Source: a bacterium
GTDB lineage: Bacteria; Caldisericota; Caldisericia; UBA6126
DNA length: 64,000 nucleotides
Assembly: GCA_021372585.1 (NCBI GenBank)
Contig: JAJFUD010000019.1
Coordinates: 45,197 to 109,196, forward strand
Direction of reading: 5' to 3'
Positions 19,408 through 59,952 of the stretch are shown here, one piece after another. Made by a program: the position numbers and the translations under genes. Positions within the stretch are counted from its first letter, which is position 1. Every line of letters starts with the position of its first letter. The notes beneath the pieces are model-generated. The model made no database searches and was not told where the DNA came from. It worked only from the letters and a program-made list of their open reading frames with translations.

Positions 19408-21207
19408 TCAGTTTTTAAGAATCGACATGAATGCTTCTTGTGGAATCTCCACATTCCCGATGGCTTTCATTCTTTTCTTCCCCTCTTTCTGCTTTTCGAG
19501 AAGTTTTCTTTTTCGGGTAATATCCCCGCCATAACATTTTGCCAATACATCTTTCCGAAGCTGTACAATGTTCTCGCGGGCGATAATTTTTCCTCCGATG
19601 GAAGCTTGAAGGGCAATATTGAACATCTGCCGGGGAATCAGCTTTCGCAGTTTCTCCAGGATCATTCTTCCCTTATAGCCGGCATTTTCCTCAATAGACA
19701 TAAAGGAGAGAGCGTCTACCGGAGTGCCATTCACCAGAATATTGACAAGAACAATTTTTTCCGGCTTGTATCCTGAAAATTCATAATCCAGGGAAGCATA
19801 CCCTTTCGTGACCGATTTCAGTTGGTCATAGAAATCGATAATAATCTCTGATAGGGGAAAATCATAATGAAGCGTTGCCCTGACCTCGGAAAGGTATTCC
19901 ATATTCTTGTATTGACCGCGTTTCAGCTTGGATAATTCCATGACCGGTCCGATAAATTCCGTGGGGGTGATGATGGAGGCAGTGACGATAGGCTCTTCAA
20001 TCATCTTAATTTTGCTTCTGTCTGGAAATTTAGAGGGGTTCTCAATAAACAACACCTCGTTGTTATATTGCGTCACTCGGTAAATGACGCTGGGAGAGGT
20101 GGTGATCAGCTCCTGTTCATATTCTCTGCGCAACCGTTCCCCGACAATTTCCAAGTGCAGTAACCCAAGAAAACCACATCGAAATCCGTAACCTAAAGCC
20201 GCTGACGTCTCCGGTTCAAAGATAAACGAAGCATCGTTTAATTTCAGTTTTTCCAGAGAGTCTTTGAGTTTATCATAATCATTCGGATTGATCGGATATA
20301 ACCCGCTGAAAACCATGGGCATGATTTTTCGATAACCCGGTAATGCCATTGGGGTTGGATTCTTTGACTCGGTGACGGTGTCCCCCACCGTGACAATGTG
20401 GGGTTCGCGGATCAGGGCGGAAAAATATCCGACCTCCCCTACGCCCAATTCCTCCACAGGCTGCATATTCATCTTAAAAATGCCAACCTCTTCCACCTCA
20501 AAGGTTTCGTGGTTGGACATCAACATGATCTTCATCCCCTTGCGAATAGATCCGTCAAATACCCTGATATGAGCAACGACGCCGATATACATATCAAAAT
20601 GGGAATCAAATATCAACGCTTTTAATGGTTTTGTCTCCTCTCCGGAAGGGGGAGGGATCAAATCCTTTACCGCCTGGATAATTTCCGGAACACCTCTTCC
20701 GTCCTTGGCGGATGCCTGAATGATCTCCTCCCTGGACACTCCAAGGAGTTCCGTGATCTCCTGGTAAGCTTCCTCAATATTGACATTTTTCAGGTCAATC
20801 TTATTCAGTACCGGGATGATGACCAGATTATTCTCCATTGCCAGGTAGGTATTCGCGACTGTCTGCGCTTCCACACCCTGGCTGACATCAATTAAAAGAA
20901 TCGCGCCTTCACAGGCTGCCAAACTTCTGGAAACCTCGTAACTGAAATCCACATGGCCGGGTGTGTCCATAATCTGAAAAATGTATGTCTCTCCCTGTAT
21001 TTCGTATTGTAAGCGGATGGGATGGGATTTAATCGTAATACCCCTCTCCTTTTCAAGATCCATGGAATCCAATAATTGGGTTTCTTTCGAGGTTTCGTTG
21101 ATTTTAAAGAATAAGTCGCTCGCTTGAATAAATCTGTCAGATAGGGTGGTTTTTCCGTGATCAATATGCGCAATAATGCAAAAATTCCGAATATTCTCTT
21201 TTTTCAT
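19408..21207 (-). CDS. lepA: Elongation factor 4 (LepA)
   Basis: IRNFCIIAHIDHGKTTLSDRF is the G1 motif and DTPGHVDFSYEVSRSLAACEGAILLID the G3 region. The C-terminal LepA domain is present. The start MKKENIRNF at 21207 is preferred. Confidence 0.9.
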   Translation of the reverse strand: MKKENIRNFCIIAHIDHGKTTLSDRFIQASDLFFKINETSKETQLLDSMDLEKERGITIKSHPIRLQYEIQGETYIFQIMDTPGHVDFSYEVSRSLAACEGAILLIDVSQGVEAQTVANTYLAMENNLVIIPVLNKIDLKNVNIEEAYQEITELLGVSREEIIQASAKDGRGVPEIIQAVKDLIPPPSGEETKPLKALIFDSHFDMYIGVVAHIRVFDGSIRKGMKIMLMSNHETFEVEEVGIFKMNMQPVEELGVGEVGYFSALIREPHIVTVGDTVTESKNPTPMALPGYRKIMPMVFSGLYPINPNDYDKLKDSLEKLKLNDASFIFEPETSAALGYGFRCGFLGLLHLEIVGERLRREYEQELITTSPSVIYRVTQYNNEVLFIENPSKFPDRSKIKMIEEPIVTASIITPTEFIGPVMELSKLKRGQYKNMEYLSEVRATLHYDFPLSEIIIDFYDQLKSVTKGYASLDYEFSGYKPEKIVLVNILVNGTPVDALSFMSIEENAGYKGRMILEKLRKLIPRQMFNIALQASIGGKIIARENIVQLRKDVLAKCYGGDITRKRKLLEKQKEGKKRMKAIGNVEIPQEAFMSILKN

Positions 21208-21341
21208 AAGAGTAGTATAACAAAAAAACCCGCCGATAATATCTGATAGGTTACCGTTATCCACGCTATTGTAGTATACTGTACCTATTACAGGAAAAGG
21301 CAGAGGAATATGCCAAATAGTATGGTAGTGAAAAGCAGGGT

Positions 21342-24193: not shown

Positions 24194-25342
24194 GTGATGA
24201 ATAAACGAATTTTTTGGTGGGTTGGTGTGGTTTTTGTAGTTTGCTCACTTAGTGTACCGGTTTTACAGCTGAAGGCGGCTGATTTCCGGTCTTCCGACCA
24301 AACAGGGTCTATTACGGTGGATTCCGGAGTAGAGACGAAAAATCTTTTCATTGCCGGGAATGAATTGGTTATCCAGGCAAAAGAGATCAAAAAAGACCTA
24401 TTTGCTTTTGGGATGAATATCGACTTGAACACCTATGTCGAGCAAGGGAGTTTTCTGGCTGGCAAAACAGTGAATATTAGTGGTTTTTATGGGGGCAACC
24501 TGTTTGTGGTTGGCTCAGAAATCACGATCAACGCGGAAGTGATGGGGGATGTGTTTCTGTTTTGCAATAAATGGTCGTTGAAACCGGAAGCCAAAATCCA
24601 TGGCGATGTTCATGTAGGTTCGGGTACCGGGTATCATGACGGTTTCATAACCGGCTCCCTGTTGGGAAGCGGGAATGAATTTTATTTGAACGGAACAGTG
24701 GAACAAACAACGAAGCTGAGGGTGGCCAAATCTTTAACGATCGGAGAAAAAGCCAACCTCAATCTGCTGGACTACGAAGCTCCTCAGAAAGCGACAGTGT
24801 TAGAGGGGGCGGTCATTCAGAAAACCGATTATCAAACCCCTGATGCCAATGTGCCAATCACCCAGAAATCATTTCATTTTCCGTTAGTCAGTTATGTCGC
24901 TTCTCTGATTTTTGCTTTGTTGTTCGTGTTTTGGCTCCGAAAACCGATGAGGCATATACTGAACACCATACAACAGCAATTTTTTGTCTCTCTGGGGATA
25001 GGTTTTGCTGTGCTTATCGGTATTCCTATTGTGGCTCTCTTGATCTTTCTTTCCGTTATTGGGTATAAGATCGCTTTAGCATTGCTGTTTTGCTATGCTT
25101 TAGGTATTCTCTGCATGAGTCCTGTTGCCGGTATATGGTTAGGGGAGTGGATTCTACGCTTGTTTAAGAGACCGGTGGCGTCACCAAGCTGGTTAGGGGC
25201 GGTGATTGGTATCACTGTCATGCCGTTCATCGCTTGGATACCTTTGTTTGGTTGGTTTTTACTATTCTTTCTGAACATTTTTTCCTTCGGAGGATTGGTT
25301 ATCACCATTTTCAGCCATCTTAAAGGGATGAACGAGACCTAA
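24194..25342 (+). CDS. Membrane protein with an N-terminal bactofilin-like / beta-helical repeat domain and a C-terminal multi-TM region
   Basis: Signal or TM segment, then a repetitive G-x-[VI]-x-G-[DN]-[VL] beta-strand pattern (GNELVIQA, GKTVNISG, GNLFVVGSEITINAEVMGDVFLF, IHGDVHVGSG). The C-terminal half has 4-5 hydrophobic helices. Confidence 0.4.
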   Translation: MMNKRIFWWVGVVFVVCSLSVPVLQLKAADFRSSDQTGSITVDSGVETKNLFIAGNELVIQAKEIKKDLFAFGMNIDLNTYVEQGSFLAGKTVNISGFYGGNLFVVGSEITINAEVMGDVFLFCNKWSLKPEAKIHGDVHVGSGTGYHDGFITGSLLGSGNEFYLNGTVEQTTKLRVAKSLTIGEKANLNLLDYEAPQKATVLEGAVIQKTDYQTPDANVPITQKSFHFPLVSYVASLIFALLFVFWLRKPMRHILNTIQQQFFVSLGIGFAVLIGIPIVALLIFLSVIGYKIALALLFCYALGILCMSPVAGIWLGEWILRLFKRPVASPSWLGAVIGITVMPFIAWIPLFGWFLLFFLNIFSFGGLVITIFSHLKGMNET

Positions 25343-25407: not shown

Positions 25408-27105
25408 CTAATCCGATGGCGTTGTCTTCCATAATGAATCCAGGGATATCGGTTGCAAAATGGTCTGAGTGATCTGAAAGTGTTCGTTGATCAGGTGTTT
25501 CGAGAATAATATCTGTTTCGGTCTTCTTTCCGGATAAAGAAAAGCGAGAAGATACCCTTTTTTATTTTGCTGGTATAGATGCATAGTTTTTGGAAAAAGA
25601 AAGTTGGTCCAATGCTTCCAAAAATCCTGAAACACTGGAAGGGTAGTCCAGTGAAGTTCAAACAGAAGGACGACTCGCTGAAGATAAGGCATCCTGGATT
25701 GGATCCTGTTCCTGATATTTGCTAAAGCCTCCTCGAGGGGGGCGTTTTCCTGGTAAGGTATATAGATAAAGCATTCTTTTTGAGAAGAGACCGGTAAGTC
25801 CGGTAAGGGTGGGAACCATGACTTGATCCATTCCAAATCAGGCGAGAGAAAGGGAGCAATCGAATAATCCAATTTCCAGCGGAGATTGGTTTTGCTCAGT
25901 ATCGTGGTGAACAAATTGGACCAGATCGGATCAAGGTACCAGATAGGCAGCCAGGGGGGAATCCTTTTTCTGTTTAAGGTCAACAGTTTACTCTGTATGA
26001 GCTCGTCTACGATGGAAGAAAACATCGTGTGCTCTCTCTTCTGTAGTTTTCTTTCCGGCTCCATGCTTTTGGCAGATTTTTCTTGGGTTAAGGTTTCGAG
26101 GGAAGAGAATACTTGAAGATAACTAGGGGGGGGGATGACCGAAAATTCAAACGGGGAAGAGGGATAGTAAAGCTGCTGTACAATTGAGTATAAGGCTTCC
26201 TTTCCAATTTGGAGAGAAGGTAACAACGGAAGATCTGATTGCCAGAAGTGGTTTTTTTTCTTCCAGAGGGACTGAAGTGATTTCCAGGGATCCTCCCTTA
26301 ATGAAACCTGGTATAAAGTAGCGTATTTTTCCTGGTTTGTATCTTCTAAAAATCGCCAGTAGAGTAAAGTGAAGATGAAATGAGAGGTAAGCCCCGAGAG
26401 GGTATGTTTGGAAAAATCCGGGTTCAAGGCAGAAAGCTCTTTAAACAAGGTAAAATGCCAAGTATCGGTCATTTTGTCCAGCTCATGATTCACGTTTGTC
26501 TTATAACTTGGGGAGGGCATCTCCTCTATAAAACGATGAAATTGATTGCCTGATAACGCGGTCGATGAAAACACAGAAAATAGAAAATCAATATTTCTGA
26601 CTCCGGGGACTAACTCGCACGGTGAGAAGAGGCTATCAATGTCGCAATAAAAGAGTCTTGATAACGCTAAGTTATCGTTTAATTCAGGTTTGATCCTGCA
26701 GTCAAACAAAGCAAATTCTTCAAAGTCTGTGCTGACGGCGATGGGTAAATTAGCTGAGAAAGAAAACCGACGTAGTTGGAAAGCTCTTTCTTTCTGTTCT
26801 TTAATCGGAAAGGCTGGTTTCTTGATATCGATAAAAAACAACGGTTTGTGTTTATTGATTAATAGATAATCGGGAGGATTCGGTTTTCCGGGTGTCGCTT
26901 GCGGATCTATTCTTGTCAGGTGCAAAGCGTTTTTCTTGTTTTCACTCCAGCCTAGCAAATGGAAAAAAGGTTTGATGTATTGTTGTATCAGGATCTGTTT
27001 CTCGAGAGTCACGCTTTTTAACTGTGATTCTGCGTTTTTGTAATCTTGAATGAGCCGATTCCATTCCTGGAAAGCGTCATTTTCGATGAACGATAGATTC
27101 TTCAT
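25408..27105 (-). CDS. Hypothetical 565-aa protein with an N-terminal PD-(D/E)xK-like nuclease plus helical module. The module is of the MmeI-type type IIG / type I HsdR N-terminal / PglX N-terminal kind. No methyltransferase motifs are present.
   Basis: The N-terminus KPFFHLLGW...PDYLLINKHKPLFFIDIKKP gives a candidate D...[DE]xK signature. It is followed by NLPIAVSTDFEEFALFD and FIFTLLYWRFLEDTN, which resemble the conserved N-terminal region of MmeI-family enzymes. The C-terminal 300 aa are Trp-rich and lack SAM-binding GxG and NPPY/F motifs. Confidence 0.4.
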   Translation of the reverse strand: MKNLSFIENDAFQEWNRLIQDYKNAESQLKSVTLEKQILIQQYIKPFFHLLGWSENKKNALHLTRIDPQATPGKPNPPDYLLINKHKPLFFIDIKKPAFPIKEQKERAFQLRRFSFSANLPIAVSTDFEEFALFDCRIKPELNDNLALSRLFYCDIDSLFSPCELVPGVRNIDFLFSVFSSTALSGNQFHRFIEEMPSPSYKTNVNHELDKMTDTWHFTLFKELSALNPDFSKHTLSGLTSHFIFTLLYWRFLEDTNQEKYATLYQVSLREDPWKSLQSLWKKKNHFWQSDLPLLPSLQIGKEALYSIVQQLYYPSSPFEFSVIPPPSYLQVFSSLETLTQEKSAKSMEPERKLQKREHTMFSSIVDELIQSKLLTLNRKRIPPWLPIWYLDPIWSNLFTTILSKTNLRWKLDYSIAPFLSPDLEWIKSWFPPLPDLPVSSQKECFIYIPYQENAPLEEALANIRNRIQSRMPYLQRVVLLFELHWTTLPVFQDFWKHWTNFLFPKTMHLYQQNKKGYLLAFLYPERRPKQILFSKHLINEHFQITQTILQPISLDSLWKTTPSD

Positions 27106-27120
27106 ATTATTTTATCATCA

Positions 27121-27206
27121 TGCCGAAGGAGGGAATCGAACCCACACGGAGTGTGAACTCCTGCAGATTTTGAGTCTGCCGCGTCTGCCAGTTTCGCCAC
27201 TTCGGC
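27121..27206 (-). tRNA. tRNA-Leu (anticodon CAA), long variable arm, CCA not encoded
   Basis: The reverse complement reads GCCGAAGUGGCGAAACUGGCAGACGCGGCAGACUCAAAAUCUGCAGGAGUUCACACUCCGUGUGGGUUCGAUUCCCUCCUUCGGCA. The anticodon loop is CUCAAAA and there is a 15-nt variable stem-loop. The T-stem has one U-U mismatch. Confidence 0.7.
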
Positions 27207-27225
27207 CTGAACAATCTTAATCATA

Positions 27226-27786
27226 CTATATTTTAGTACTTTTCTCAATAGATGATTTTCTTTTCGAACCGGTACGGTTAAACCCGATCAAGAGAAATCC
27301 TACCAGGATCAGGCTGATTGCCAGGTAGGAAATCCATTGCATGTCCTGTGTCCATTGTACTTGCAGCAGCCATTGTACCAGGCTGATCCCGATACATAGG
27401 TAAGCGATCCATGCAAAACCTTTCTCTCCGGTTTCCAAGATAAACAGAAAATACGAAACTCCGATGGCAACGAACATGAAGCTTAACCATAACGCATTCT
27501 CCCAGAATGGAATGGTGGGATAGAGGTACAAGTGTACCCAGATAAAGAGAGAGATCATACTCAACAGAACGCCCATGAAAAGAGATCGGTAAGTGGCATG
27601 CAGCAGATAATCCGTTAAAGCAACCAATCCGCTGATTAAGAGAATACCTGCAAGGATATACGGCCAGAAAGCGTCTGCACCGGTCCATTGGGTAAATAGC
27701 ATCGCGCCTCCTGTCAGCAAAAAGAACCATGCGAACCAGGCTTTCCATCCGGTAACAGGTTTTGCAGCATGTTGTTTCATGGTCAA
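27226..27786 (-). CDS. Hypothetical polytopic membrane protein (HdeD/DUF308-like)
   Basis: Five to six hydrophobic helices and no soluble domain. The start lies 4 nt downstream of the pyk stop. Confidence 0.4.
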   Translation of the reverse strand: MTMKQHAAKPVTGWKAWFAWFFLLTGGAMLFTQWTGADAFWPYILAGILLISGLVALTDYLLHATYRSLFMGVLLSMISLFIWVHLYLYPTIPFWENALWLSFMFVAIGVSYFLFILETGEKGFAWIAYLCIGISLVQWLLQVQWTQDMQWISYLAISLILVGFLLIGFNRTGSKRKSSIEKSTKI

Positions 27787-27790
27787 CCTC

Positions 27791-29245
27791 CTAAGCGGTT
27801 ACAATCTGGATTAGGTTGGTAGATCCGGCGATCCCCATCGGTGTCCCTAATGTGAACACGATTTTATCCATTGGTTGAATCAATGATAATTGCATCAATT
27901 GGGTTTTCACGTGTTGGATACTCTGTTGGACATCCTCAGTCAGGTAAGTGCGAAAGGCTCTGCAGCCCCAGAAAAGTTCACAAATTCTGCACACATGGTC
28001 AGAATTGGTAAAAACATAAATAGGTACGTTCGGGCGAAATTTAGCGATTCTTCTTGCTGTACTGCCGGAAGAAGTCAAGCATACAATACAGGAAGCATGT
28101 ATCAAGCTGGCTATTCTGGCGGCTCCGTTGGCGATCGCTTCAGAAGGCTCGCTCTGCAATGTTTCGGCTAGTCCTCCCCAGCTCACTTTATTACAGTGTT
28201 TGACCTCTGTTTTGGTGATGATTTTTTTCATGACATGAATGACATTCACAGGATCGGAGGAAACCGCTGTTTCCGCAGATAACATCAAAGCATCTGACCC
28301 GTCCAGTATCGCGTTGGAGATGTCCGCCGCTTCAGCCCTGGTTGGAGTGACGCTCGTGATCATGGATTCGAGCATCTGGGTGGCAGTGATCACGGATTTT
28401 CCCATCAAGTTACATTGCGAGATGATATCTTTTTGCAATAGCGGAATGTCCTCGATTGGCATCTCTATTCCTAAGTCTCCCCTGGCAACCATGACAGCAT
28501 CAGCGGCATGAATAATGGCTGGTAAATTTCTGAGAGCTTCGTGTTTCTCGATTTTGGCTATAATCCCCACCATGGGCGAATAAGCGCTAGCCAAATCCTT
28601 GATTCTCTCTACATCTCCCACGGTTCTCACAAACGAGAGAGCCAGGTAATCACAAAAATGGTGGGAGCATAAGAAATGAATCCACTCAATGTCTTCATCG
28701 GTGGGGTAACAAATGTGCAAGTTGGAATAGGGGAAATTGACTCCTTTGTTTGGTTTGATCGTGCCGTCGTTTAAGGCTTCACATATAAGAAAATTTGTAT
28801 CCTCAGAAATCACCCTGACTTGTATCTGACCGTCATCAATATAGATCGCTTCGTTTATGTTCACATCCTCGAGCGCATCCGGATAATTGAGTTTGACAAC
28901 CAACTGGTTTTCAGTTGGATACGGGGCTGTTTCTGATTTGGAAAAATACAGTGTCTCCCCTTTTCGAATTTGCAGCGGGAAAGACAAATCGTGAATCCTG
29001 ATTTTTGGTCCGGGTAAATCGGCAATGATGGAGAGGGGCAGGTTGACTTCGGTGGAAACTTCCCGAATCAGCTGTACATAATGAGCGATCTCCTCCTGGT
29101 TGGTGTGGGAAAGGTTAATTCTTAGCAGGGTTGCGCCTTCGAGAACCATGGCGCTTATCGCTTCTTTTGTATGCGAGGAAGGTCCCAAGGTAGCGATTAT
29201 TTTCGCACGGGGATAGAACCAATCTCGCTTATCCATCATTGTCAT
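27791..29245 (-). CDS. pyk: Pyruvate kinase
   Basis: RAKIIATLGPSS...LLRINLSHTNQEE (barrel domain), MVARGDLGIEMPIEDIP. The product is 484 aa. Confidence 0.9.
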   Translation of the reverse strand: MTMMDKRDWFYPRAKIIATLGPSSHTKEAISAMVLEGATLLRINLSHTNQEEIAHYVQLIREVSTEVNLPLSIIADLPGPKIRIHDLSFPLQIRKGETLYFSKSETAPYPTENQLVVKLNYPDALEDVNINEAIYIDDGQIQVRVISEDTNFLICEALNDGTIKPNKGVNFPYSNLHICYPTDEDIEWIHFLCSHHFCDYLALSFVRTVGDVERIKDLASAYSPMVGIIAKIEKHEALRNLPAIIHAADAVMVARGDLGIEMPIEDIPLLQKDIISQCNLMGKSVITATQMLESMITSVTPTRAEAADISNAILDGSDALMLSAETAVSSDPVNVIHVMKKIITKTEVKHCNKVSWGGLAETLQSEPSEAIANGAARIASLIHASCIVCLTSSGSTARRIAKFRPNVPIYVFTNSDHVCRICELFWGCRAFRTYLTEDVQQSIQHVKTQLMQLSLIQPMDKIVFTLGTPMGIAGSTNLIQIVTA

Positions 29246-32166: not shown

Positions 32167-33726
32167 CTATTGCTTTGCTATTTCTTCCGATTCCATGATC
32201 CAATCTTCGAGAGTAGTGATCAGTTTTCCATAAAGAGAGGGATTCTTGATAGCGTTGGTTAAAAAAGTCCTGTATTTTTCAGCTTGCTGGTTGTAAAAGG
32301 AAGGAAAGATTTGATTGCTTAATACCCACCGATCGGCTTTAACCTGGTAAACATCTATCCAAGTCAGGTTCTCCAGCATAGAATCCTCTTCCCCTTCCCA
32401 ATCAACATATAGGTTCAATACTTCTTGGCTGCCATCTTGGTTCAGATCTTCCCATTTCCATGAATTCCTCAGCTTCTTTTCAGAACGGAATATTTCTTTC
32501 AGGATTCCCTGCCGGGTAATTGAAAATTGGGATAATCTTTCAGCTCCAAGCGCTTTTTCGTGGCTTTGCCAACTGCATAGAAGGTCAGGTTTATTGTCCT
32601 GGTTGATATCTTCGAGAAAACAATCCACCAATTGATATCCTAACACAGTGGTATGGGATTTTGTCCTGTCCTTATATAGGCTGAGTAACTGCTTATCTGC
32701 CCGGTAGGTGGCGAGGGATTGGCCGTTTGCGAATAACCAGTACTCATCGAAAGGAGCCGGGAGTCTCTGTATAACAGCCGCATTTATCAAATTAAAATCA
32801 GCCCATCTAGGCGCTTTGTTGGCGTATCGTTGGGTAGGCTTGATGGTTGGAAAAGTGCCGGAAGCGATAATGCCAGGCTGAATCGATTGGATAGAGTCAA
32901 CGTAAAATATCTGCTGATTCTTGCTATACGCAAACGTATACCCGTTTAAGGAGAAAGAATACCCGTGAAAGGGGGTATCGGACTGATCGATCAGATCAGT
33001 TTTTGAGAAGTCGGTGCGAACCATATAGAGTTGGTTGACCAGGGGTATTTTGCTTGTCAAGCCTTGTATATAGCTGGTATTCTTCTTTCTATGCACCGAT
33101 AATAAACAGAAGCGGTCATTTCGGGAAACGATCCCCAATTCAGACCACACTTTCGACAAGGTGACCGATTTTCTTTTCAGGAAAGAATCCGCACCGGTCT
33201 TTTTTCTGTCAATCATCTGCAAGCCAAGCTCCATGGAGGAGAGAATGATCTTGTTCCCGTTTGGAGAGAAGCGAATCCAGGTGTTATCCGGATCCGGAAG
33301 ATCGTAGGCAGTGTAAATCTCCTGGGTGGAGAGTAGTTTCTCTATCTGGTCGGAAAGAGAATAATAATACACGGTGAAAGTATCTGCATCAATTTTCCGG
33401 AGAAAATAGAAGCCTTCTCCTTCTGTATCCCAGCTTGGAGCATAGTCAGCTCCCTCGGTTAAACGCAGGTCTTGTTTAGTCCCGGTATGGAATAAATGAA
33501 TGCTTCCGTCTGTGCCGCGGAACAAGATCTCCTCATCGGAAGGGGGAGAAATATATTTTGTTTCATCTTCTTGTAAAACAGACGGAGTCTGAATCAGGAG
33601 CAGGACCCACCTGACAGAGAAAAATAAAATAGACCCAACCGCTGCGACCAAACACAGCAGGACAAACCAACCCAGTATTTTTCGGAGAATTTTACGTTTT
33701 TTTCGTTCCAAAGTCACTCCTCCCAA
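32167..33726 (-). CDS. Membrane-anchored hypothetical protein with beta-propeller-like (TolB/WD40-like) and FG-GAP/VCBS-like segments
   Basis: An N-terminal TM anchor. The segment GTDGSIHLFHTGTKQDLRLTEGADYAPSWDTEGEGFYF resembles TolB-type propeller blades. DINQDNKPDLL and WEDLNQDGSQEVL resemble Ca-binding FG-GAP loops. Confidence 0.35.
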   Translation of the reverse strand: MGGVTLERKKRKILRKILGWFVLLCLVAAVGSILFFSVRWVLLLIQTPSVLQEDETKYISPPSDEEILFRGTDGSIHLFHTGTKQDLRLTEGADYAPSWDTEGEGFYFLRKIDADTFTVYYYSLSDQIEKLLSTQEIYTAYDLPDPDNTWIRFSPNGNKIILSSMELGLQMIDRKKTGADSFLKRKSVTLSKVWSELGIVSRNDRFCLLSVHRKKNTSYIQGLTSKIPLVNQLYMVRTDFSKTDLIDQSDTPFHGYSFSLNGYTFAYSKNQQIFYVDSIQSIQPGIIASGTFPTIKPTQRYANKAPRWADFNLINAAVIQRLPAPFDEYWLFANGQSLATYRADKQLLSLYKDRTKSHTTVLGYQLVDCFLEDINQDNKPDLLCSWQSHEKALGAERLSQFSITRQGILKEIFRSEKKLRNSWKWEDLNQDGSQEVLNLYVDWEGEEDSMLENLTWIDVYQVKADRWVLSNQIFPSFYNQQAEKYRTFLTNAIKNPSLYGKLITTLEDWIMESEEIAKQ

Positions 33727-36099: not shown

Positions 36100-38226
36100 A
36101 TGAAAAAAGTGATGGTGTGGTTATGTATTCTTTGCATTTTCTCCACAATAGGGGGATCGTTTGAGAGTAAAGCAGAGGAAAAACCCGACACGATTCAAAC
36201 CGTTTTGGAAGAGTACGGATATGACCTCAACGAGATCAAATACGACCCTGAAATTCTGTCTTCACTCATCGCGACGAATGCTAAAATGACATTTCCGTGG
36301 TTTCATCGTTGGTGGAGTCACCCTTTCGAGATTCCCAAGAATGTCAAAGGGACGGTCAACGGGATTGCCGATAGCTATCATGTGAAATCCGCTGAGTTTT
36401 CCAATACAGGACTCTTCCAGCAGTTTTTAGGGGGCATGTCTCGAACCGGGTATACAGCGACCGCTATGCCTGAACTAAAACTGATGCCGTATCCGATCGA
36501 TAAAGAAGAGCCGATTTTAGACGGCGTGAAATTTGTCTACGCTGCGATGGGGTACGACTTTTATGAACCTCAGGCGGAAGCAGTCAGGACAGCAGTCGGA
36601 TCGATGCCGGCAGAGCTCCAGATGCCATTCGCGGATTATCTTTATTCTGCGGTGATTTTGTGGCGGTATCGAAACCGCGCGATGCGTAACATCCCCAAAG
36701 AGAAATGGGCGGATGTATATGATAAGGCGATTCAGATGTCTATCTCTGTCGAAGAGACGAAAGACCTGGATGCTTTTATGTGGGATACCGGTCCGACTTT
36801 TGATTATTTAGACCTGTATAACGGAACGGTACCTTTGATTTATTCCATTTTCAAGATCGAAAAAAAGATCCGAGACGAGAAATTTGACACAAAAGGGTAC
36901 CAGTTTGACATCTATACCCCGTTGGGAAGAATCGCTTTCCAAGGAGGATCAGAGAAAAATGAGTACATTGGAGACGATTACTGCTTGATCGTCGATTGCC
37001 TGGGCGATGACAATTTCATTGGTGCCACAGCGGCTAATTCTTCTCTTAACAAGCCTGTATCGGTTGTCATCGATTTCGACGGCAATGATCATTATAGCGC
37101 TGATAAAAGGGATAAATGTGCTCAGGGAACAGGTGTATTAGGCGTGGGCATCCTGATTGATGAACAGGGAAACGATGTGTACGAAGCGTGGGATAACGCA
37201 CAAGGTGCTGCCACTTTTGGTGTCGGTTTACTTTGGGACAATGCTGGCGATGATACCTTTAAAGCGCGTGTGTTTTCTCAAGGCGCAGGTCAGTTTGGGG
37301 TGGCCAATCTCGTCAACGTTGGAGGCAATGATACCTATTACGCTTTTTACGCTTCACAGGCTTATGGCTATACAGGCGGGTACGGCTTACTGCTCGATAC
37401 CGAGGGTGACGACCAATACACCGCTGAGCCAACGGAGTTATTGACCCCCGGGGTGTTGGGTCACAATGACAATATCAATTATTCTCTTTGCCAGGGCGTA
37501 GGCTTTGGCCGCAGAGCTGACTTGTATGATGGCCACTCGATGGGAGGTGGAATGGGTGTGTTGGTGGATCTCAAGGGAGATGACAAATATGTCGCCGGCA
37601 TTTATGCCCAAGCCTCCGGATACTGGTTTGCCACCGGTATTCTTTACGACAAAGAGGGCAATGATGTATACGATGCTTATTTCTTTGTACAGAGCGGTAC
37701 GGCGCATATGGGCATCACTGAATTGCTCGATGAAGCCGGAGACGATATCTATTATGCCAGACAAGCGATCTCTGCCGGAGGCGCTCATGATGTTTCCATC
37801 TCCTGGCATGTTGATAAAGGCGGGAACGACAAATTTCTATGCAATTATGAAGTGACAGACAAGGATGGTAAAAAAACCAAGACATCCGGTGGTATCTTGT
37901 TAGGCTCCTCCACTGCGAATGGAATGGGAATATTAGTGAACATTGGCGGAGACGATGTGTATGATGTGTTGGATGAGCCGGGAAGAGGGAAGCAGAGCGT
38001 CGGATATGCCAACCACGTTGTCCCTCCCACGATGAATACCTGGCGAAATACGTTCCCGGATGTCGGTTTGTTTATCGATATCGGCGGGGAAGATACGTAT
38101 ACCAGACCGGATCTGATTAAAAATAATACCAGCTGGAAACAGGAATCCACGCAATACGCGAGAAGAATGTCCGTTGGGATTGGTTTGGATATTGAAGAAG
38201 GGTATATTCCCTGGGTAGAATGGTAG
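36100..38226 (+). CDS. Secreted tandem-repeat protein (about 10 degenerate 22-24-aa G-x-G-[IL]-L-x-D-x-x-G-[ND]-D-x-[YF] repeats, putative beta-solenoid)
   Basis: Signal peptide MKKVMVWLCILCIFSTIGG. The repeats include GVGILIDEQGNDVYEA, GVGLLWDNAGDDTFKA, GVANLVNVGGNDTYYA, GYGLLLDTEGDDQYTA, GMGVLVDLKGDDKYVA, ATGILYDKEGNDVYDA, GITELLDEAGDDIYYA, GMGILVNIGGDDVYDV and GLFIDIGGEDTYT. Confidence 0.5.
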   Translation: MKKVMVWLCILCIFSTIGGSFESKAEEKPDTIQTVLEEYGYDLNEIKYDPEILSSLIATNAKMTFPWFHRWWSHPFEIPKNVKGTVNGIADSYHVKSAEFSNTGLFQQFLGGMSRTGYTATAMPELKLMPYPIDKEEPILDGVKFVYAAMGYDFYEPQAEAVRTAVGSMPAELQMPFADYLYSAVILWRYRNRAMRNIPKEKWADVYDKAIQMSISVEETKDLDAFMWDTGPTFDYLDLYNGTVPLIYSIFKIEKKIRDEKFDTKGYQFDIYTPLGRIAFQGGSEKNEYIGDDYCLIVDCLGDDNFIGATAANSSLNKPVSVVIDFDGNDHYSADKRDKCAQGTGVLGVGILIDEQGNDVYEAWDNAQGAATFGVGLLWDNAGDDTFKARVFSQGAGQFGVANLVNVGGNDTYYAFYASQAYGYTGGYGLLLDTEGDDQYTAEPTELLTPGVLGHNDNINYSLCQGVGFGRRADLYDGHSMGGGMGVLVDLKGDDKYVAGIYAQASGYWFATGILYDKEGNDVYDAYFFVQSGTAHMGITELLDEAGDDIYYARQAISAGGAHDVSISWHVDKGGNDKFLCNYEVTDKDGKKTKTSGGILLGSSTANGMGILVNIGGDDVYDVLDEPGRGKQSVGYANHVVPPTMNTWRNTFPDVGLFIDIGGEDTYTRPDLIKNNTSWKQESTQYARRMSVGIGLDIEEGYIPWVEW

Positions 38227-47886: not shown

Positions 47887-50800
47887 CTACCTCTTTAAAG
47901 TAATCTTAATTTCTTTTGTTTTCGCTTCCCAGTCCACCTTGGCGCCAAAGGCTTCCCCGATAAACCGCAGTGGTACCATCGTTCTTCCGTTCATGATGAC
48001 GGGAGGGGCCTCCAGCGGGAGGGGTTGTTTATTTTTATAGGCTGTCTTTTGCCCGATTCGTAAAGTGAGTTGAATTGTGTCCAACAGGAGGTTGATCTCT
48101 TTTTTTGAAGCTTCCCAGTCCACCTTGGCGCCAAAGGCTTCCCCGATAAACCGCAGTGGTACCATCGTTCTTCCGTTCATGATGACGGGAGGGGCCTCCA
48201 GCACCACTGATTGGTTGTTTACGATCGCTAATGCCCTGTCAATCGCCAGTTCGATATACAAGATCATTTTGTACCGGGTGACGACAAGGTCAAGATACGA
48301 TTGGTTGTTGGCTTTGTCTATGGCAACCAACCGGAAAGTCTGTTTCCCCATGGCTACATTGAGGAGATGTTTCCAGTCTGTCAGGTAATCTGCCGAGATG
48401 GTCTGCTGGTTAATCACCAAAATACAAGCTTCGTCGGTGTGAATCTGAATCGCAAACTGACTCAGGGTGGTTTCCATTGTCTGCAGATTGGGCTGTATTA
48501 GCGAGAGGATGGGGGGATGAGTGTCAACCGTAACGGTTCTCGTCTCTTTCAATTGGTTGCCGAAGTCGTCCTTAACCAGGAACAGGATCACATTCTGCCC
48601 TTCAGAAAGCAGAATTGTCTCCCTGAATCCTCCTCGGGTATCCAGCCGAACTGATCGTTCGTTGATAAACAGGAAAGTCCCATTGGTAGAGCCGGTCACT
48701 TCGATAGATTTTTTATTTATGACCAGGTTATCCTGGAGGTTGACAGAGAGAGAAAGCGGATTCCGGAATTTGGTGACGGAATTCGACCAATCCGATTCTA
48801 ACCTACCGTTAAAGGCAAATACACGGTACGTATAGACGGTTTGGTTTTTCACTGTTGTGTCAGAATAGGTCTGTTCTTTCAGCCAACCTGTCTCAAGAAA
48901 TGGATTTCCCGGTAGCTGTTTAATCCGGCTTATCTTGTATTGAGCATTTTCCGGTAAATTTTGAATGGATAATTCGATCCCGTTTTTCTGGTTTACAGCG
49001 GTCAGGGAGGGAATCAGCCATGGATCTCTCTCAATGGCTTCGACTTCAATCGGAAACTGAATCTGTGAGTTATCCTGCATCGTGATCAGAACAGTTTCTT
49101 TCCACGATCCTGCTTCTGTCGGTGCTGCCTGAAACTGAAGCAGGTTCTCGCTGATCTGATAGGAAACAGGCAATGAAGCCGGTATGACAACATTCAATGG
49201 CTTTCCGGCATGAGAAAAAAATAAGTTAAAGACAGCCTGAGTTCCTTTGTATAAGGTAGTAGACCACTGTTTTTCCACCGGTTCAGCGGGCGCCTCCGAA
49301 GAGGGTATAAAGCACAGCACAGCTTGGCCAACCAATCGTCCTTCCAGCCATATCCCGATTCGAATCAGGATCGTTCGGGTCGGTTTTGGTTGGCTCATCA
49401 AGAAAGAACCTTTTATAATCGTGCCGGGATGAGTGATTTGCGAAGAGAGTCTCATCTCGATATCCGGATCCTCATTCTCGATAGTCAGCTGTAAAGGTTT
49501 CCTGAAGGATCCCTGGGTGAATAAATCCATCTCAAAGGAAAGCGGTTGGTGGGGGGTGACGAATAAAAATTCCGGGTCCGTTTCCAGGGAGAGGAGCTCC
49601 TCATTGCCCTGTTTGACGGGAAGAATTGTTTTTTGACCTGAAGCAGTCGCGATTTCAATACGGCTTGTCTCAGAGATAGTTTGGTAATCCAGCATAGAAA
49701 AGACAAACTGGTATCGGTACTGTGGGAACAAAAGGATTGAGTCCATGGTAAAGAGGGGTGTTTCCTTTCCCTCCTCGTCTTTTTCAGATGAAAAAAGTGA
49801 TAGGGAGAATGGTTCGCTCAAGCCTTCCTGTTCCTGAAAATGGAAAAGTATTTCCGTAAAATCTTTCGACACCAAGATTTCTTGTTCCATCGGGAGACTC
49901 TCTTTACGCAGGTAAGATAATCGAATGTCGGGTGTCTTTTCCGGATTTGTTTGTAAAGTCAACGGTTCAAAGCCGTATTTTGTAATGGTCAGCTCTGATG
50001 GAAGGGCGGGTAAATAAAAATAGCCCCATTCATTGGTGTGCGTATCATTGACAAAGCAATCAGTCAGAGGATTGCCAAAGGGGTCCCTGACCGGCCAATA
50101 GACAGAACCTTCCGGGTCATTCCGTCGCGCTTCCAGGGTGATTGTCTCAGAGGTTTGGTTGGTTAAGCTCAATGCTTGAATGGACACTGATCCGGCAGGC
50201 AAATCCTCAGGTAATCTTACCTTCGCTACCTGGGTACGGTCTTTTTCCAGATGCAGCTGCGTGATCAGGGTCTTGGTTATGCCTTCGCTGGTCACCGACA
50301 AGGAGACATCCTGGCTAACCTGGCTCTTAAAATACAGGGGGGTCGGGGTATCCGCTGAGATGGTTTTGGACTCTTTGGAGTCCACCCAGAACAGAAATGA
50401 GGAGTCGGATTCCCAGGCACAATCCCAAACAAACTCATTGCCTGATTTTAAGGGGATCTGAACCTCATCGGTAACCAGTTTATGCTGATCCTGGGCGATC
50501 AGGAAACGATAGTTTCCTTTGGAAAGGTTGTTCAGAGTGAATTTGCCAAACTCATCGCTGACTGCTTTACCGGAGGTAGGACCCTCCCATACTTCAATGT
50601 TGGCTTCCGCTAATGGCAGGTCATATAAGGAATTCCATATACTACCGCTCAGGCTCTCTTTGCCAGGAGTGGATTCGCGGATCTGCAAAGCGGAGAGAGT
50701 AACTTGCTTAGTTCCTTTATCGCTCAAGAAAGTGGTTTCTAGCTGAGCATTCTTTTCACACCACGGCACCACAGGATTAAAGAACTCTGTCTGCATCGCC

Positions 50801-55962: not shown

Positions 55963-56546
55963 ATTATGCTGTATTCGGGTTAGGCAATCCTGGCAAGGAG
56001 TATCTGACCTCCCGGCATAATATCGGATTCTGGGTAGTTGATTATTTGGAAAAGCAATACAAAACCAGCCAGAAACGCATAGAATGTTTTGCGGTTACTT
56101 GGCTGGCTGCCTTACCACCGGCACAACATGTCCTGTTCGTAAAGCCAGCCACTTTTATGAACTTATCCGGCAAAGCTGTCGGGCAGATCGTACAAAAATA
56201 TGCTCTCCCCCTTAACCGGATTTTAATCCTGCATGATGACTTGGACCTGCCGTTTCTTCAGATACGCATCAAAAACAGAGGGCAGAGTGGGGGGCACCGC
56301 GGGGTTGAATCGATCATTCAATCTTTGCATACCGATTTGTTTGCCCGGTTGAAGATCGGGATCGGCCGCCCCGGGATGTACGAAGATCCGGTAGAGTATG
56401 TTTTATCCTCTTTTTCAAAAAAGGAGCAACAAGAGATTATAAACCGGATGCCTGACCTGCGAGATGCGGTTGAAAGCTGGTTAGAGAGTGGTTTTCATCA
56501 CACAGCTAATCGGTTTAACCGAAAAAATACCGTTGACGATGAATAA
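55944..56546 (+). CDS. pth: Peptidyl-tRNA hydrolase
   Basis: FGLGNPGKEYLTSRHNIGF, catalytic His in SRHN, and ILHDDLDLP. Confidence 0.85.
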   Translation: MVQEEINYAVFGLGNPGKEYLTSRHNIGFWVVDYLEKQYKTSQKRIECFAVTWLAALPPAQHVLFVKPATFMNLSGKAVGQIVQKYALPLNRILILHDDLDLPFLQIRIKNRGQSGGHRGVESIIQSLHTDLFARLKIGIGRPGMYEDPVEYVLSSFSKKEQQEIINRMPDLRDAVESWLESGFHHTANRFNRKNTVDDE

Positions 56547-59500: not shown

Positions 59501-59952
59501 AGTCAACTGGACAAGAAGCGGAAGCAGTTCTCTTTCCGGAATTTCCGATTACCGGCTATATTCCCTCCGCCATGATTCGGGATGAAGGGGAACGGTTGGC
59601 TCTGTACCAGCAGTTAGTCTCTCTGCAATCCAAAAAAGAACTTCTGGCGATGGAAGACCAGATCCGTGATCGGTTTGGACCTCCTCCACCCGCTTTATCC
59701 GAGTTTTATAAAAACCTGGAACTTCGTATACTGGCTTTTGAAAAGGGATTGGACGCGGTGAAAACAGAAGAGAACCTGGTGGTATTTACGTTTAAGAAAG
59801 ATTCCCGCCGGTTCGACCTGAATGTTCATCACATTAGTAAGCTTGTGAATGAGTTCGGGAGCCGGATTCGATTTAAAGCGGAACAGATCCTTGTCCGAAA
59901 GGATGCTATCCCTTTGGATGATATTATCAGAGGAGTATTGCAATGCCTGTAG
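56539..59952 (+). CDS. mfd: Transcription-repair coupling factor
   Basis: UvrB-homology N-terminus, DRGDMLYVP, and the helicase motifs GDVGYGKTEVA and DEEH. The C-terminal TRCF domain is present. The start ATG at 56539 overlaps the pth stop (ATGAATAA). Confidence 0.9.
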   Translation: MNKPLLSYFQSLFTSTLPSSFPREPIHLYNATNAVSSLFIAHVATHPFSSMLIIVPGEGDCERIYANLHDLLPLTLQSKLYIFPDGSQVPYEKVSLPREVIGEQMQVLHALQQPGQKIVITTIRAVFQPVLSPEELERATMKIAVGEEISFTALMEQLEKFGYRNEVAVERVGDIRIKGGLLDIFSPTSNQPARIEFFENQIQSIRFFDPVTQLSIEKTESYSIIPFSHFLYTREAIQQLDKKLTAYFQKNPNDLSDIIQKDLVEIKQGIYFSGIEHYLPFSREEEKILTDYFSEDSFLFLVQPTLLEEGIKLFQTEAYEIVVMEREKHEVLSLPWEKYFQRSRKKLESFPKTIRLSSSPLNKTTPQKIALPIHSIEGLSTGDYKSVIQQYSVKNHQLIICTKQYKRVKEILTQIGLEGETHSIVLVDSYLSDGFHYPSQKVTLLTDKELFGWKRPHKPVRKFREGIPIQSIEDLKMGDILVHYNYGVGIYRGLKVVKDLEGKEKEFVLLEYDRGDMLYVPPERINAVNKYIGEAEHVKLNSLGSSDWERIREKAKKSVQELAKDLIALYAQREMAKGTAFHMDTPWQKEMESSFPYEETPDQLVAIQDVKQDMESRKIMDRVVTGDVGYGKTEVAIRASFKAIMEGYQVALLVPTTILASQHFETFKERFAPYPINLQILSRLISDKKKKEIVKGVKEGKVDLVIGTHAILSKDLVFKNLGLLVIDEEHKFGVRHKEKIRKLKENVDVLTLTATPIPRTLSMAISGIKEISRIDTSPEGRKPVKTYVMPFDEEALVSAIRFEIARDGQVYYVHNRIKDIEKVKEKLTALLPDIRIGVAHGQMNGEEIDNVITSFLEGQIQLLLCTTIIESGIDIPTVNTILVDDAHRLGLAQMYQLRGRVGRSNRKAYAYFFYPKDLAITETATSRLEVIKEFVELGSGLKIALRDLEIRGAGNFLGSEQSGHLRAVGYHLYVQLLKEAMDEIKSSQSTGQEAEAVLFPEFPITGYIPSAMIRDEGERLALYQQLVSLQSKKELLAMEDQIRDRFGPPPPALSEFYKNLELRILAFEKGLDAVKTEENLVVFTFKKDSRRFDLNVHHISKLVNEFGSRIRFKAEQILVRKDAIPLDDIIRGVLQCL

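Follow-up and report, generated by a model that had tools for sequence, protein, structure and literature searches.

The question raised by this locus is how a gene for the nuclease and helical part of a restriction–modification (R-M) enzyme comes to stand directly behind a tRNA gene without a methyltransferase. The gene lies on the minus strand at 25408..27105 of the window (the whole 64-kb stretch of DNA that was analysed) and encodes 565 amino acids plus a stop codon from an ATG start. Its product, which is deposited at NCBI as “hypothetical protein” MCE5222873.1 (exact match in the protein collection), is a type IIG R-M derivative that has neither a target-recognition domain (TRD) nor a working methyltransferase. 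The original prediction of a 565-aa reading frame starting 15 nt behind tRNA-Leu(CAA) is borne out by the positions of both genes, the tRNA being located at 27121..27206 on the same strand. The start codon is backed by the N-terminus MKNLSFIENDAF, which is kept in relatives and in which nucleotide changes fall on third codon positions. We consider it reasonably likely that the gene derives from a type IIG enzyme, is restricted to one lineage and maintained by selection, and now resides in a vertically inherited locus. A published account of this gene family was not found in literature searches.

The protein starts with a PD-(D/E)xK nuclease domain of the HSDR_N type (residues 1-150, 26656..27105, minus strand). 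It is followed by a helical connector domain (residues 151-335, 26101..26655, minus strand) that ends in the strongly conserved LYYPSSPFEFSV (residues 312-323, window 26137-26172). All four segments that had been quoted as resembling type IIG enzymes are found, namely KPFFHLLGW (residues 45-53), PDYLLINKHKPLFFIDIKKP (78-97), NLPIAVSTDFEEFALFD (119-135), and FIFTLLYWRFLEDTN (243-257). A profile search of the N-terminus, whose failure had been named beforehand as a refutation of this resemblance, gave a strong match to the PADLOC model REase_MTase_IIG (E=5.7e-37, residues 15-335), which is the sole PADLOC match of the protein. A profile built from 45 full-length type IIG enzymes matches with E=5.7e-57 from residue 11 to residue 326, where the match ends. 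The helical connector is thus present, including LYYPxSP(F/Y)EFSV, and is modeled by AF2 with a pLDDT of 83-93 over most of its length. Pfam HSDR_N (PF04313) is matched with E=2.4e-5, just under the gathering threshold (24.7 bits vs the 25.1-bit cut-off). Judged by these scores, the similarity of the N-terminus to type IIG/HsdR_N is far above chance. The proposed nuclease plus helical module of type IIG/HsdR_N kind is therefore upheld, but membership in the MmeI family is not (MmeI_N E=0.08, 13.7 bits vs 27).

The catalytic motif P-D79...D93-I-K95 is contained in PDYLLINKHKPLFFIDIKKP (26815..26874, minus strand) and aligns to APDY...FFVEAKKP of full-length type IIG enzymes. D79, D93, and K95 are invariant across clades A-C of the family, and the same holds for a Q110xxx(F/Y) motif. 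In clade D the catalytic lysine is substituted with an arginine (FFVEVRNP) in all four sequences, so that nuclease catalysis may not be the function shared by the whole family. The domain also departs from its parent elsewhere: true type IIG enzymes have 61 near-invariant positions in their nuclease domain, of which 26 are changed in the window protein (e.g. FRIGG to LINKH).

The remaining residues 336-565 (25411..26100, minus strand) form a Trp-rich region without SAM-binding or catalytic motifs that is probably an eroded and shortened methyltransferase domain. The original description of this region holds, with 4.3% Trp in the C-terminal 230 aa compared to 2.1% in the N-terminal part, and a regex scan of the entire protein found no FxGxG, GxG, or [DNS]PP[YFW]. 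In multiple alignments, LDPIWSNLF (residues 391-399, 25909..25935, minus strand) takes the place of methyltransferase motif I (ILDPACGSGSF), where D392 survives but the GxG does not. FLYPE (residues 522-526, 25528..25542, minus strand) is aligned by MAFFT with motif IV (GNPPY), a placement that is uncertain. Methyltransferase models of Pfam do not match the protein even at E-values up to 10, no Pfam match to TaqI_C occurs in it, and, aligned with full-length type IIG enzymes, the protein ends about 400 aa before they do. A normal methyltransferase with overlooked motifs, which had been named as a refutation, was accordingly found neither by regex nor by Pfam nor by profile, with no match past residue 326. 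Since methyltransferase motifs and TRD are absent, a self-contained R-M function is impossible.

Direct searches with residues 336-565 gave zero matches in Pfam, NCBIfam, PHROG, and PDB sequences, and a C-terminal profile run against 1.84 billion representative proteins in an exhaustive HMMER search found only its own cluster. The comparison with the 45 type IIG enzymes by hhalign is not significant (E 0.78), its sole reported alignment falling at the position predicted by collinearity; that with the longer orthologue P0004 is negative or non-significant. The profile and structure check suggested for this region thus yielded no significant methyltransferase match, and the AF2 model has low confidence (pLDDT 35-65, and 47 when the region is modeled alone). 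With these searches negative, the evidence for a methyltransferase fold is transitive and syntenic. Syntenic orthologues of 629-651 aa in sister lineages (P0004, L166, L167, L170) match Eco57I (3.2e-9) and N6_Mtase (1.8e-4). A TRD is missing from them, and their methyltransferase motifs are dead (DP[FY]CR[ST]GKF; GVPPS or FSPPA). Derived insertions and motifs are common to these orthologues and the window protein, and the alignment between the latter and L167 extends to residue 393. Because these orthologues retain the Eco57I/N6_Mtase fold with dead motifs, the C-terminus of the window protein is most likely an eroded methyltransferase. The region is probably not a new domain.

The tRNA-Leu(CAA), called by ARAGORN and Rfam, lies directly upstream in every gene-carrying genome (L001, L002, L003, L004, L005, L006, L086, L166, L167, L170). 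Its 3′ end is separated from the ATG by the A/T-rich 15-nt spacer TGATGATAAAATAAT (27106..27120, minus strand), in which no CCA is encoded after the tRNA. The spacer is 12-15 nt long in clades A-C and longer (23-26 nt) in clade D. It also carries no Shine-Dalgarno sequence, whereas GGAGG-like sites precede most other genes of the window. A promoter-like TTGAGA-17 nt-TATGAT (27220..27248, minus strand; a consensus match only) is located just upstream of the tRNA and overlaps the end of the preceding gene. It agrees with the consensus at 10 of 12 positions, and both hexamers are identical in the window, L006, L001, and L003. Given this conserved site before the tRNA, the tRNA and the gene are likely co-transcribed. 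The signals that speak for co-transcription are consensus matches and spacing. The spacer indeed leaves no room for a promoter of the gene's own, as originally noted, an absence for which transcription from the promoter-like site of the tRNA would account.

Upstream of the tRNA follow a small membrane protein gene (the TM gene, 27226-27786, minus strand; LiaF-TM-like in relatives) and the pyruvate kinase gene pyk (27791-29245, minus strand; Pfam PK and PK_C). Downstream, a convergent gene on the plus strand (24194..25342) encodes a membrane protein with DUF8173 in relatives. Within about 12 kb on each side, the genes comprise glmU-like, prs, L25, lepA, purE, purC, NfeD, SPFH, DUF8173, pyk, an AI-2E transporter, and an MFS transporter, which are housekeeping or membrane genes throughout. 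Methyltransferase, specificity, integrase, mobile, or defence genes were not found near the gene in the window, nor did a six-frame profile search of all 64 kb detect a second type IIG piece, a TaqI_C-type TRD, or a split partner. The expectation that specificity gene, ATPase, and defence partner are absent nearby is consistent with both results. In clades C and D, rsmG (GidB) stands between the gene and the DUF8173 gene; its overlap with the gene's 3′ end amounts to 10-23 nt in L003, L004, and L166. A fixed linkage to rsmG is true for these two clades and fails in the window and in L001, in both of which tblastn found no rsmG. A fixed partnership with RsmG is hence unsupported for the clade of the window. 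A recent tRNA-linked genomic island was considered and rejected, as there is no att-like copy of the tRNA 3′ end at ≤3 mismatches, no flanking repeat, no integrase, and no compositional anomaly (GC an unremarkable 0.41-0.44 at the gene region compared to 0.42-0.47 in the flanks). From the suggested remnant beside a tRNA integration hotspot, the adjacency to tRNA-Leu(CAA) remains, and the island signs (att, integrase, composition) were not found.

The position of the gene is old. The order pyk, TM gene, tRNA-Leu(CAA), gene is kept in 10/10 sufficiently complete loci down to 55% pyruvate kinase (PK) identity, so that the comparison of homologue neighbourhoods proposed at the outset returned the same tRNA-Leu locus in all ten. 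Outgroups at 51-54% PK identity carry the tRNA without the gene, which implies an ancient insertion at this site. These outgroups and the members of clade D were revealed by a walk along pyruvate kinase orthologues; scans of GTDB species genomes and JGI metagenomes returned only further copies of known clades. In the searches made, the family is confined to one uncultured bacterial lineage, and a universal housekeeping family, the other refutation that had been envisaged, does not apply.

The gene is also under selection. Against its 95%-identical relative L006, the overall dN/dS is 0.15 (p=5e-14 against neutrality). By part, it amounts to 0.06 in the nuclease, 0.07 in the helical domain (p=1e-13 for residues 1-335), and 0.32 in the C-terminus (p=1.4e-3). 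In other pairs, synonymous sites are saturated and pN is 0.13-0.23. The nuclease domain evolves more slowly than any other part and is still 93% identical where dS is saturated. Clade D has a dN/dS of 0.04, and even the dead methyltransferase-like part has a pN of 0.108 vs a pS of 0.75. Compared to L001, the gene product is 78% identical, PK 82%, and PurE 82%, i.e. the gene diverges about as slowly as pyruvate kinase. Frames are intact in all clade A-C sequences (560-566 aa) and in clade D (629-651 aa), and the copy in L088 is interrupted solely by undetermined bases. With purifying selection, intact frames, and a fixed locus, the gene is not a pseudogene. As a separate observation, the sister subfamilies decay in a complementary manner: one has an intact triad and an unrecognizable methyltransferase, the other a recognizable methyltransferase fold and the lysine-to-arginine substitution. 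Short type IIG proteins of 557-627 aa (P0078, P0093, P0105, P0046, P0062) were tested as a natural short form and rejected; they are cut by frameshifts or contig ends, have motif I intact, and do not belong to a related family.

These data can be arranged into a proposed history. The ancestor would have been a single-chain type IIG enzyme consisting of nuclease, helical connector, N6-adenine methyltransferase, and a TaqI_C-type target-recognition domain, whose gene may have inserted directly 3′ of tRNA-Leu(CAA) in a forebear of the one uncultured lineage. The recognition domain and the methyltransferase chemistry would then have been lost and R-M function with them, and the gene would have been retained by purifying selection and passed on vertically at the same position. 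In the clade of the window, constraint is strongest on the nuclease fold with its D79/D93/K95 triad and on the connector, and the former methyltransferase was probably remodeled into a shorter Trp-rich α/β region. Expression may start at the tRNA promoter with a tRNA-mRNA co-transcript, from which processing of the tRNA 3′ end would free an mRNA with a 15-nt leader lacking a Shine-Dalgarno sequence. The product is predicted to be a methylation-independent nuclease, or at least a nucleic-acid-binding protein. It would be targeted by the remodeled C-terminal region or a partner instead of a type IIG recognition domain and would serve a resident cellular role, not a mobile defence system. As selection has kept the gene across the lineage after the loss of R-M function, the product probably does some other job now. 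Of the three options offered originally, a domesticated remnant of an R-M gene beside a tRNA is thus favoured by the loss of motifs and TRD, by selection, and by synteny. A more specific version, in which the type IIG scaffold was recruited to a core process tied to the translation apparatus, is improbable. The protein might then be a factor that processes RNA or DNA, or a binding factor; it would be made from the tRNA-Leu(CAA) transcript, and its translation would ancestrally have been coupled to that of RsmG, the 16S rRNA methyltransferase. If this were true, an R-M enzyme would have turned into a housekeeping factor and not into a defence gene.

Other explanations differ in what they take the conserved nuclease fold to be doing. 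The protein might have lost all catalysis and be kept as a binding or structural protein, possibly with a partner such as RsmG. METTL14, a partner protein with a dead methyltransferase, and the inactive nuclease homologue RecC would be comparable. Clade D fits such a scaffold well, as 4/4 orthologues lack the catalytic lysine and still are under strong purifying selection, and so do the many replaced near-invariant residues in the nuclease domain of the window protein. Inactive members of the PD-(D/E)xK superfamily are known, RecC being named as one (PMC3424549), and the overlapping rsmG immediately downstream in clades C and D would supply the partner. What makes the scaffold unlikely for the window protein is that the triad and Q110xxx(F/Y) are invariant in clades A-C, that the nuclease domain evolves slowest, and that rsmG does not neighbour the gene in either the window or L001. 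The gene could also be a pseudogene in decay, or its product an ordinary type IIG enzyme with overlooked motifs. The truncated architecture and the frequent frameshifted and truncated type IIG genes of other genomes would suit this alternative; intact frames and a dN/dS of 0.04-0.15 argue against the former, the lack of SAM-binding and catalytic motifs and of the TRD against the latter, and after the selection and motif tests, which refute both, their probability is negligible.

In type I systems, HsdR docks onto M2S. By analogy, the protein could be the R subunit of a split R-M system that restricts DNA and docks via its helical and methyltransferase-like parts onto a methyltransferase-specificity complex encoded elsewhere. 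R-M systems whose genes are unlinked are on record (Ershova et al. 2012, PMC3488263), the window protein has a complete catalytic triad, and the inspection of the genome covered 64 kb. This is nonetheless quite doubtful, since no methyltransferase, specificity, or type IIG-like sequence occurs in those 64 kb, the parent family is single-chain and has no known separate specificity subunit, and the 557-627-aa matches are frameshifted or truncated ordinary enzymes; long vertical inheritance at a housekeeping locus would also be unlike the usual turnover of R-M genes. Comparably slim chances can be given to a type IV-like, methylation-independent defence nuclease that cuts modified or foreign DNA and uses the remodeled C-terminus as a sensor. 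In JGI, “predicted type IV restriction endonuclease” is the name of several full-length relatives. A cell can tolerate a nuclease that has no cognate methyltransferase as long as host DNA is ignored, and the C-terminus evolves fastest, as would be expected of a part exposed to invaders. Its dN/dS of 0.32, however, reflects purifying and not diversifying selection, no known modification-reading or NTPase domain was detected in the protein, and its PADLOC match covers the type IIG nuclease-helical part only. The gene moreover lies outside any defence island at one fixed locus, is missing from all other lineages, and shows no sign of horizontal transfer.

The preferred reading, a resident type IIG derivative, is of wider relevance. 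The usual view of R-M genes is that they are mobile, change hands rapidly, and soon disappear when broken. In this case, a type IIG enzyme minus methylation protection and target reading is still selected at one site while PK fell to 55% identity. If its activity were worked out, the protein would show what the nuclease-connector of type IIG and type I enzymes does without a methyltransferase or recognition domain, and it would provide a concrete case of a defence gene converted into a resident gene. The labels “HsdR N-terminal domain-containing protein” and “adenine-specific DNA-methyltransferase,” which are given to members of the cluster, are misleading for the family.

Among known systems, type IIG R-M enzymes (PADLOC REase_MTase_IIG; HSDR_N-helical-Eco57I/N6_Mtase-TaqI_C; solved for RM.BpuSI, PDB 3S1S) share the nuclease and the helical connector with the gene product. 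In contrast to them, it is about 400 aa shorter, lacks the TRD, SAM-binding motif I, NPPY motif IV, and motif X, and is encoded at a fixed chromosomal locus with vertical inheritance and purifying selection. The likeness to type I HsdR (PDB 3H1T; EcoR124I, 2W00) is limited to the N-terminal HSDR_N domain with its near-threshold score; the window protein has no helicase/translocase motor, and HsdM/HsdS were not found nearby. Type IIL enzymes such as MmeI (5HR4) and DrdV (7LO5) differ by the subthreshold MmeI_N score and by MmeI_hel, MmeI_Mtase, and MmeI_TRD, none of which were found in the protein. Nor is the protein a BREX PglX: the BREX cluster (brxA/B/C, pglZ) in which PglX functions is absent nearby. 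PglX is not known to have an N-terminal nuclease domain. The match to PglX (8C45) spans only 196 of its 1218 residues, and the window protein is devoid of methyltransferase motifs. As initially stated, the architecture is therefore unlike standard R-M or BREX layouts, with methyltransferase, TRD, MmeI domains, and BREX cluster all missing.

MutH, a relative of Sau3AI, is a restriction-type nuclease in a housekeeping role. MutH and RecC (PMC3424549 for RecC) set precedents for restriction-type PD-(D/E)xK folds in resident cellular or non-catalytic roles; a sequence relationship of the window protein to them was not found. Solitary restriction endonuclease genes (Ershova et al. 2012, PMC3488263) likewise encode a restriction-type nuclease without a linked methyltransferase. 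A separated system, a fragment, an inactive enzyme, or another function have been discussed as explanations and match the alternatives considered for the present gene, and most such genes are explained as fragments or parts of separated systems (PMC3488263). Compared to these, the gene in the window is full-length in its own family, syntenic down to 55% PK identity, and under selection.

The 565-aa ORF (25408-27105, minus strand; MCE5222873.1, 'hypothetical protein [bacterium]' at NCBI, on a 121.8-kb contig) follows a tRNA-Leu(CAA) gene on the same strand (27121-27206). The spacer between the two is TGATGATAAAATAAT, and the coordinates 27105 and 27121 agree with the 15-nt distance of the original prediction. 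The first 335 residues comprise a nuclease domain (1-150) and a helical connector (151-335). In type IIG enzymes, which are single-chain restriction-modification (R-M) proteins, these parts are followed by an Eco57I/N6_Mtase methyltransferase and a TaqI_C target-recognition domain. The PADLOC type IIG restriction-methyltransferase model matches residues 15-335 (E=5.7e-37), and a custom type IIG profile, made from 45 full-length relatives, covers residues 11-326 (E=5.7e-57), which bears out the proposed N-terminal likeness to the type IIG/HsdR_N nuclease module. The Pfam HSDR_N score (24.7 bits) falls just below the cut-off of 25.1 bits. All four peptide segments originally quoted are present (residues 45-53, 78-97, 119-135, and 243-257). 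MmeI_N gives only a trace match (E=0.08), and by sequence the protein does not belong to the MmeI family. The relatives found in databases at 25-31% identity are ~950 aa long and carry HSDR_N, N6_Mtase, Eco57I, TaqI_C, and MmeI_Mtase domains.

In the AlphaFold2 model, a predicted structure, confidence is high over residues 11-330: pLDDT is ~90 for the most part, falling to 72-76 near residues 281-300 and to 73 from residue 321 onwards. In alignment to type IIG enzymes, P-D79...D93-I-K95 takes the place of the family's catalytic motif PD...E-A-K, and Q110-L-R-R-F and T126-D-F-E-E are likewise kept. However, of 61 positions that hardly vary among true type IIG nuclease domains, 26 are changed.

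In a set of 5.8 billion proteins, no more than four clusters exceed ~31% identity (P0001, 95%; P0002, 78%; P0003, 65%; P0004, 36%), and scanning GTDB species genomes and JGI metagenomes returned only more copies of these. Annotations clash inside the window protein's 90%-identity cluster ('hypothetical protein' versus 'type I restriction enzyme HsdR N-terminal domain-containing protein'), where a 354-aa fragment also carries the label 'adenine-specific DNA-methyltransferase', which is wrong for this family. Presence and absence of the gene were surveyed by walking along the pyruvate-kinase (PK) orthologues of the lineage, with each locus PK compared to that of the window. The carriers fall into four clades: A (the window and locus L006, in the same PK cluster at ≥90%), B (L001 and L086; PK identity 82%, the figure for L001), C (L003; 77%), and D (L004/L005, L166, L167, and L170; 55-59%). 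In all carrier loci that extend far enough upstream, pyk is followed by the gene for a small membrane protein and then by tRNA-Leu(CAA), with the nuclease-module gene directly behind the tRNA. The gene is absent from L168, L171, and L172 (PK 51-54%), in which pyk, the membrane-protein gene, and tRNA-Leu(CAA) are followed by unrelated genes, and from L169 (50%), in which the tRNA is likewise absent at this position. LepA identities, which are 69-100% within the lineage (two relatives are NCBI MAGs labelled Caldisericia) and at most 59% to every other phylum, assign the organism to a deep, uncultured lineage. The window's lepA ORF as called mechanically (19408-21264, minus strand; 618 aa from a GTG start) exceeds the NCBI protein of the same contig (599 aa) by 19 aa, and its real start therefore probably lies further inside.

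A target-recognition domain is missing from the clade D proteins (629-651 aa, and a further partial copy). Their methyltransferase motifs are dead, with DP[FY]CR[ST]GKF at motif I and GVPPS or FSPPA at motif IV, and arginine replaces the catalytic lysine (FFVEVRNP). They share with the window protein derived characters missing in ordinary type IIG enzymes, namely a PGKPxPPD segment, FPI, an insertion around FxPC...N, and EDxNxEKYAxLYQxS. These shared sequence characters, combined with the identical locus, show that the clade D and window proteins are orthologues. Five 'short' type IIG proteins of 557-627 aa from other organisms (P0078, P0093, P0105, P0046, and P0062) have motif I intact; they were rejected as natural short forms, being ordinary enzymes cut by frameshifts or contig ends, and illustrate that broken type IIG genes are common.

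Residues 336-565, a Trp-rich region, have no match in Pfam, NCBIfam, PHROG, or PDB sequence searches, and a profile of this region, run exhaustively with HMMER against 1.84 billion representative proteins, recovered only the protein's own cluster. The absence of SAM-binding and NPPY motifs noted earlier extends to the whole protein, which contains zero FxGxG, GxG, or [DNS]PP[YFW]. The sole alignment from profile-profile comparison (hhalign) with type IIG enzymes, IVDELIQ...LDPIW against IVDYIVKN...LDPAC, is non-significant (E=0.78) and sits at the collinear position. In multiple alignments LDPIWSNLF falls on motif I (DPACGSGSF) and FLYPE on motif IV (GNPPY). In the orthologues, the match to the type IIG profile covers positions 4-503 and 539-662, and the L167 orthologue can be aligned with the window protein as far as residue 393. 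Decisively, the C-terminal parts of the orthologues are still recognised as Eco57I (3.2e-9) and N6_Mtase (1.8e-4); because of this, and by orthology and collinearity, residues 336-565 are most probably an eroded, shortened methyltransferase domain.

Compared with the 95% identical L006 protein, dN/dS is 0.15 for the whole protein (p against neutrality 5e-14), 0.06 for the nuclease and 0.07 for the helical connector (p 1e-13, residues 1-335 tested jointly), and 0.32 for the C-terminus (p 1.4e-3). Synonymous sites have reached saturation between more distant pairs (pS 0.83-0.89, versus pN 0.13-0.23). The nuclease domain retains 93% identity to L001 and the whole protein 78%, close to the 82% for PK, 82% for PurE, and 81% for the AI-2E transporter; both flanking membrane proteins lie lower, at 60%. 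In clade D, dN/dS is 0.04, and the methyltransferase-like part has pN 0.108 versus pS 0.75. Judged from this purifying constraint, the gene is functional in both subfamilies, and the ratios of 0.15 and 0.04 rule out a pseudogene.

A promoter-like TTGAGA-17-TATGAT (27248-27220, minus strand) lies just before the tRNA, both hexamers being identical in clades A-C. Packing on the minus strand is tight, with 4 nt from the pyk stop to the membrane-protein gene start (27786-27791) and 19 nt from that gene's stop to the tRNA (27206-27226), so the promoter-like site overlaps the end of the coding region. In clades A-C the tRNA-to-start spacer is 12-15 nt without a Shine-Dalgarno site, and TGA/TGG comes after the tRNA's discriminator A, with CCA unencoded (window 27106-27123). 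In clade D the spacer is 23-26 nt with an AAGGA(G) site, and CCA is encoded (L004:9972-9974; tRNA ends in L166 and L167). GGAGG-like sites precede most other window genes. The gene is probably co-transcribed with tRNA-Leu(CAA), its mRNA being freed by tRNA 3′ processing, an arrangement like that of the known bacterial tRNA-tufB operon.

Directly 3′ of the gene in clades C and D lies rsmG (GidB, 16S rRNA m7G methyltransferase; L003:10202-10639, L004:11934-12500, L166:10049-10615, and L167:10062-10565). Its overlap of 10-23 nt with the gene's 3′ end in L003, L004, and L166 suggests translational coupling; rsmG is missing from the 64-kb window and from L001. In the gene-less outgroups, the tRNA is followed by an unrelated ORF of 799 aa that begins 17 nt further on (L171:5277-5383), by an HTH_5 regulator after 38 nt (L172:7006-7132), or by NAD synthase on the opposite strand (L168:8483-8763), so genes seem to have been gained or replaced repeatedly at this flank within the lineage. 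At the gene itself, neither a repeat of the tRNA 3′ end nor a compositional anomaly was found. Other large ORFs of the window lie at 47887-53409 (minus, 1840 aa) and 56488-59952 (plus, 1154 aa); those at 36100-38226 (plus, 708 aa) and 32167-33726 (minus, 519 aa) have no Pfam match at E≤1e-5.

An R-M system is out of the question for this protein, which has neither a recognition domain nor methyltransferase chemistry. Its evolutionary identity as a type IIG derivative is very likely. A fuller reading is favoured with some reserve: the protein would be a type IIG derivative that has been retained, the PD-DxK site would still be in use in the window's clade, and either the remodelled C-terminal region or a partner would supply the targeting. 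Actual nuclease activity is a rather tentative proposal. The main rival is a non-catalytic scaffold, for which the Lys-to-Arg change throughout clade D speaks; the window protein has Lys at position 95. As originally stated, no defence partner lies nearby: all genes within ~12 kb on either side are housekeeping or membrane-related, and the 64 kb contain no other type IIG-like fragment. The R subunit of a split R-M system (cf. PMC3488263) and a type IV-like defence nuclease are both less likely.

For the favoured retained derivative, BpuSI offers a comparison, as its helical connector lets the nuclease be sequestered against the methyltransferase domain (PMC3185434); a similar autoinhibited arrangement is plausible here by analogy. 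Literature searches found no description of a selected, tRNA-linked derivative without recognition domain and methyltransferase activity. In comparative-genomic terms the gene is a clean instance of an R-M gene that became a resident one, confined to one uncultured lineage. Two defining features of type IIG enzymes, the methyltransferase motifs and the recognition domain, are lacking in the window protein, which at most works in the manner of the type IIG/type I nuclease-connector module.
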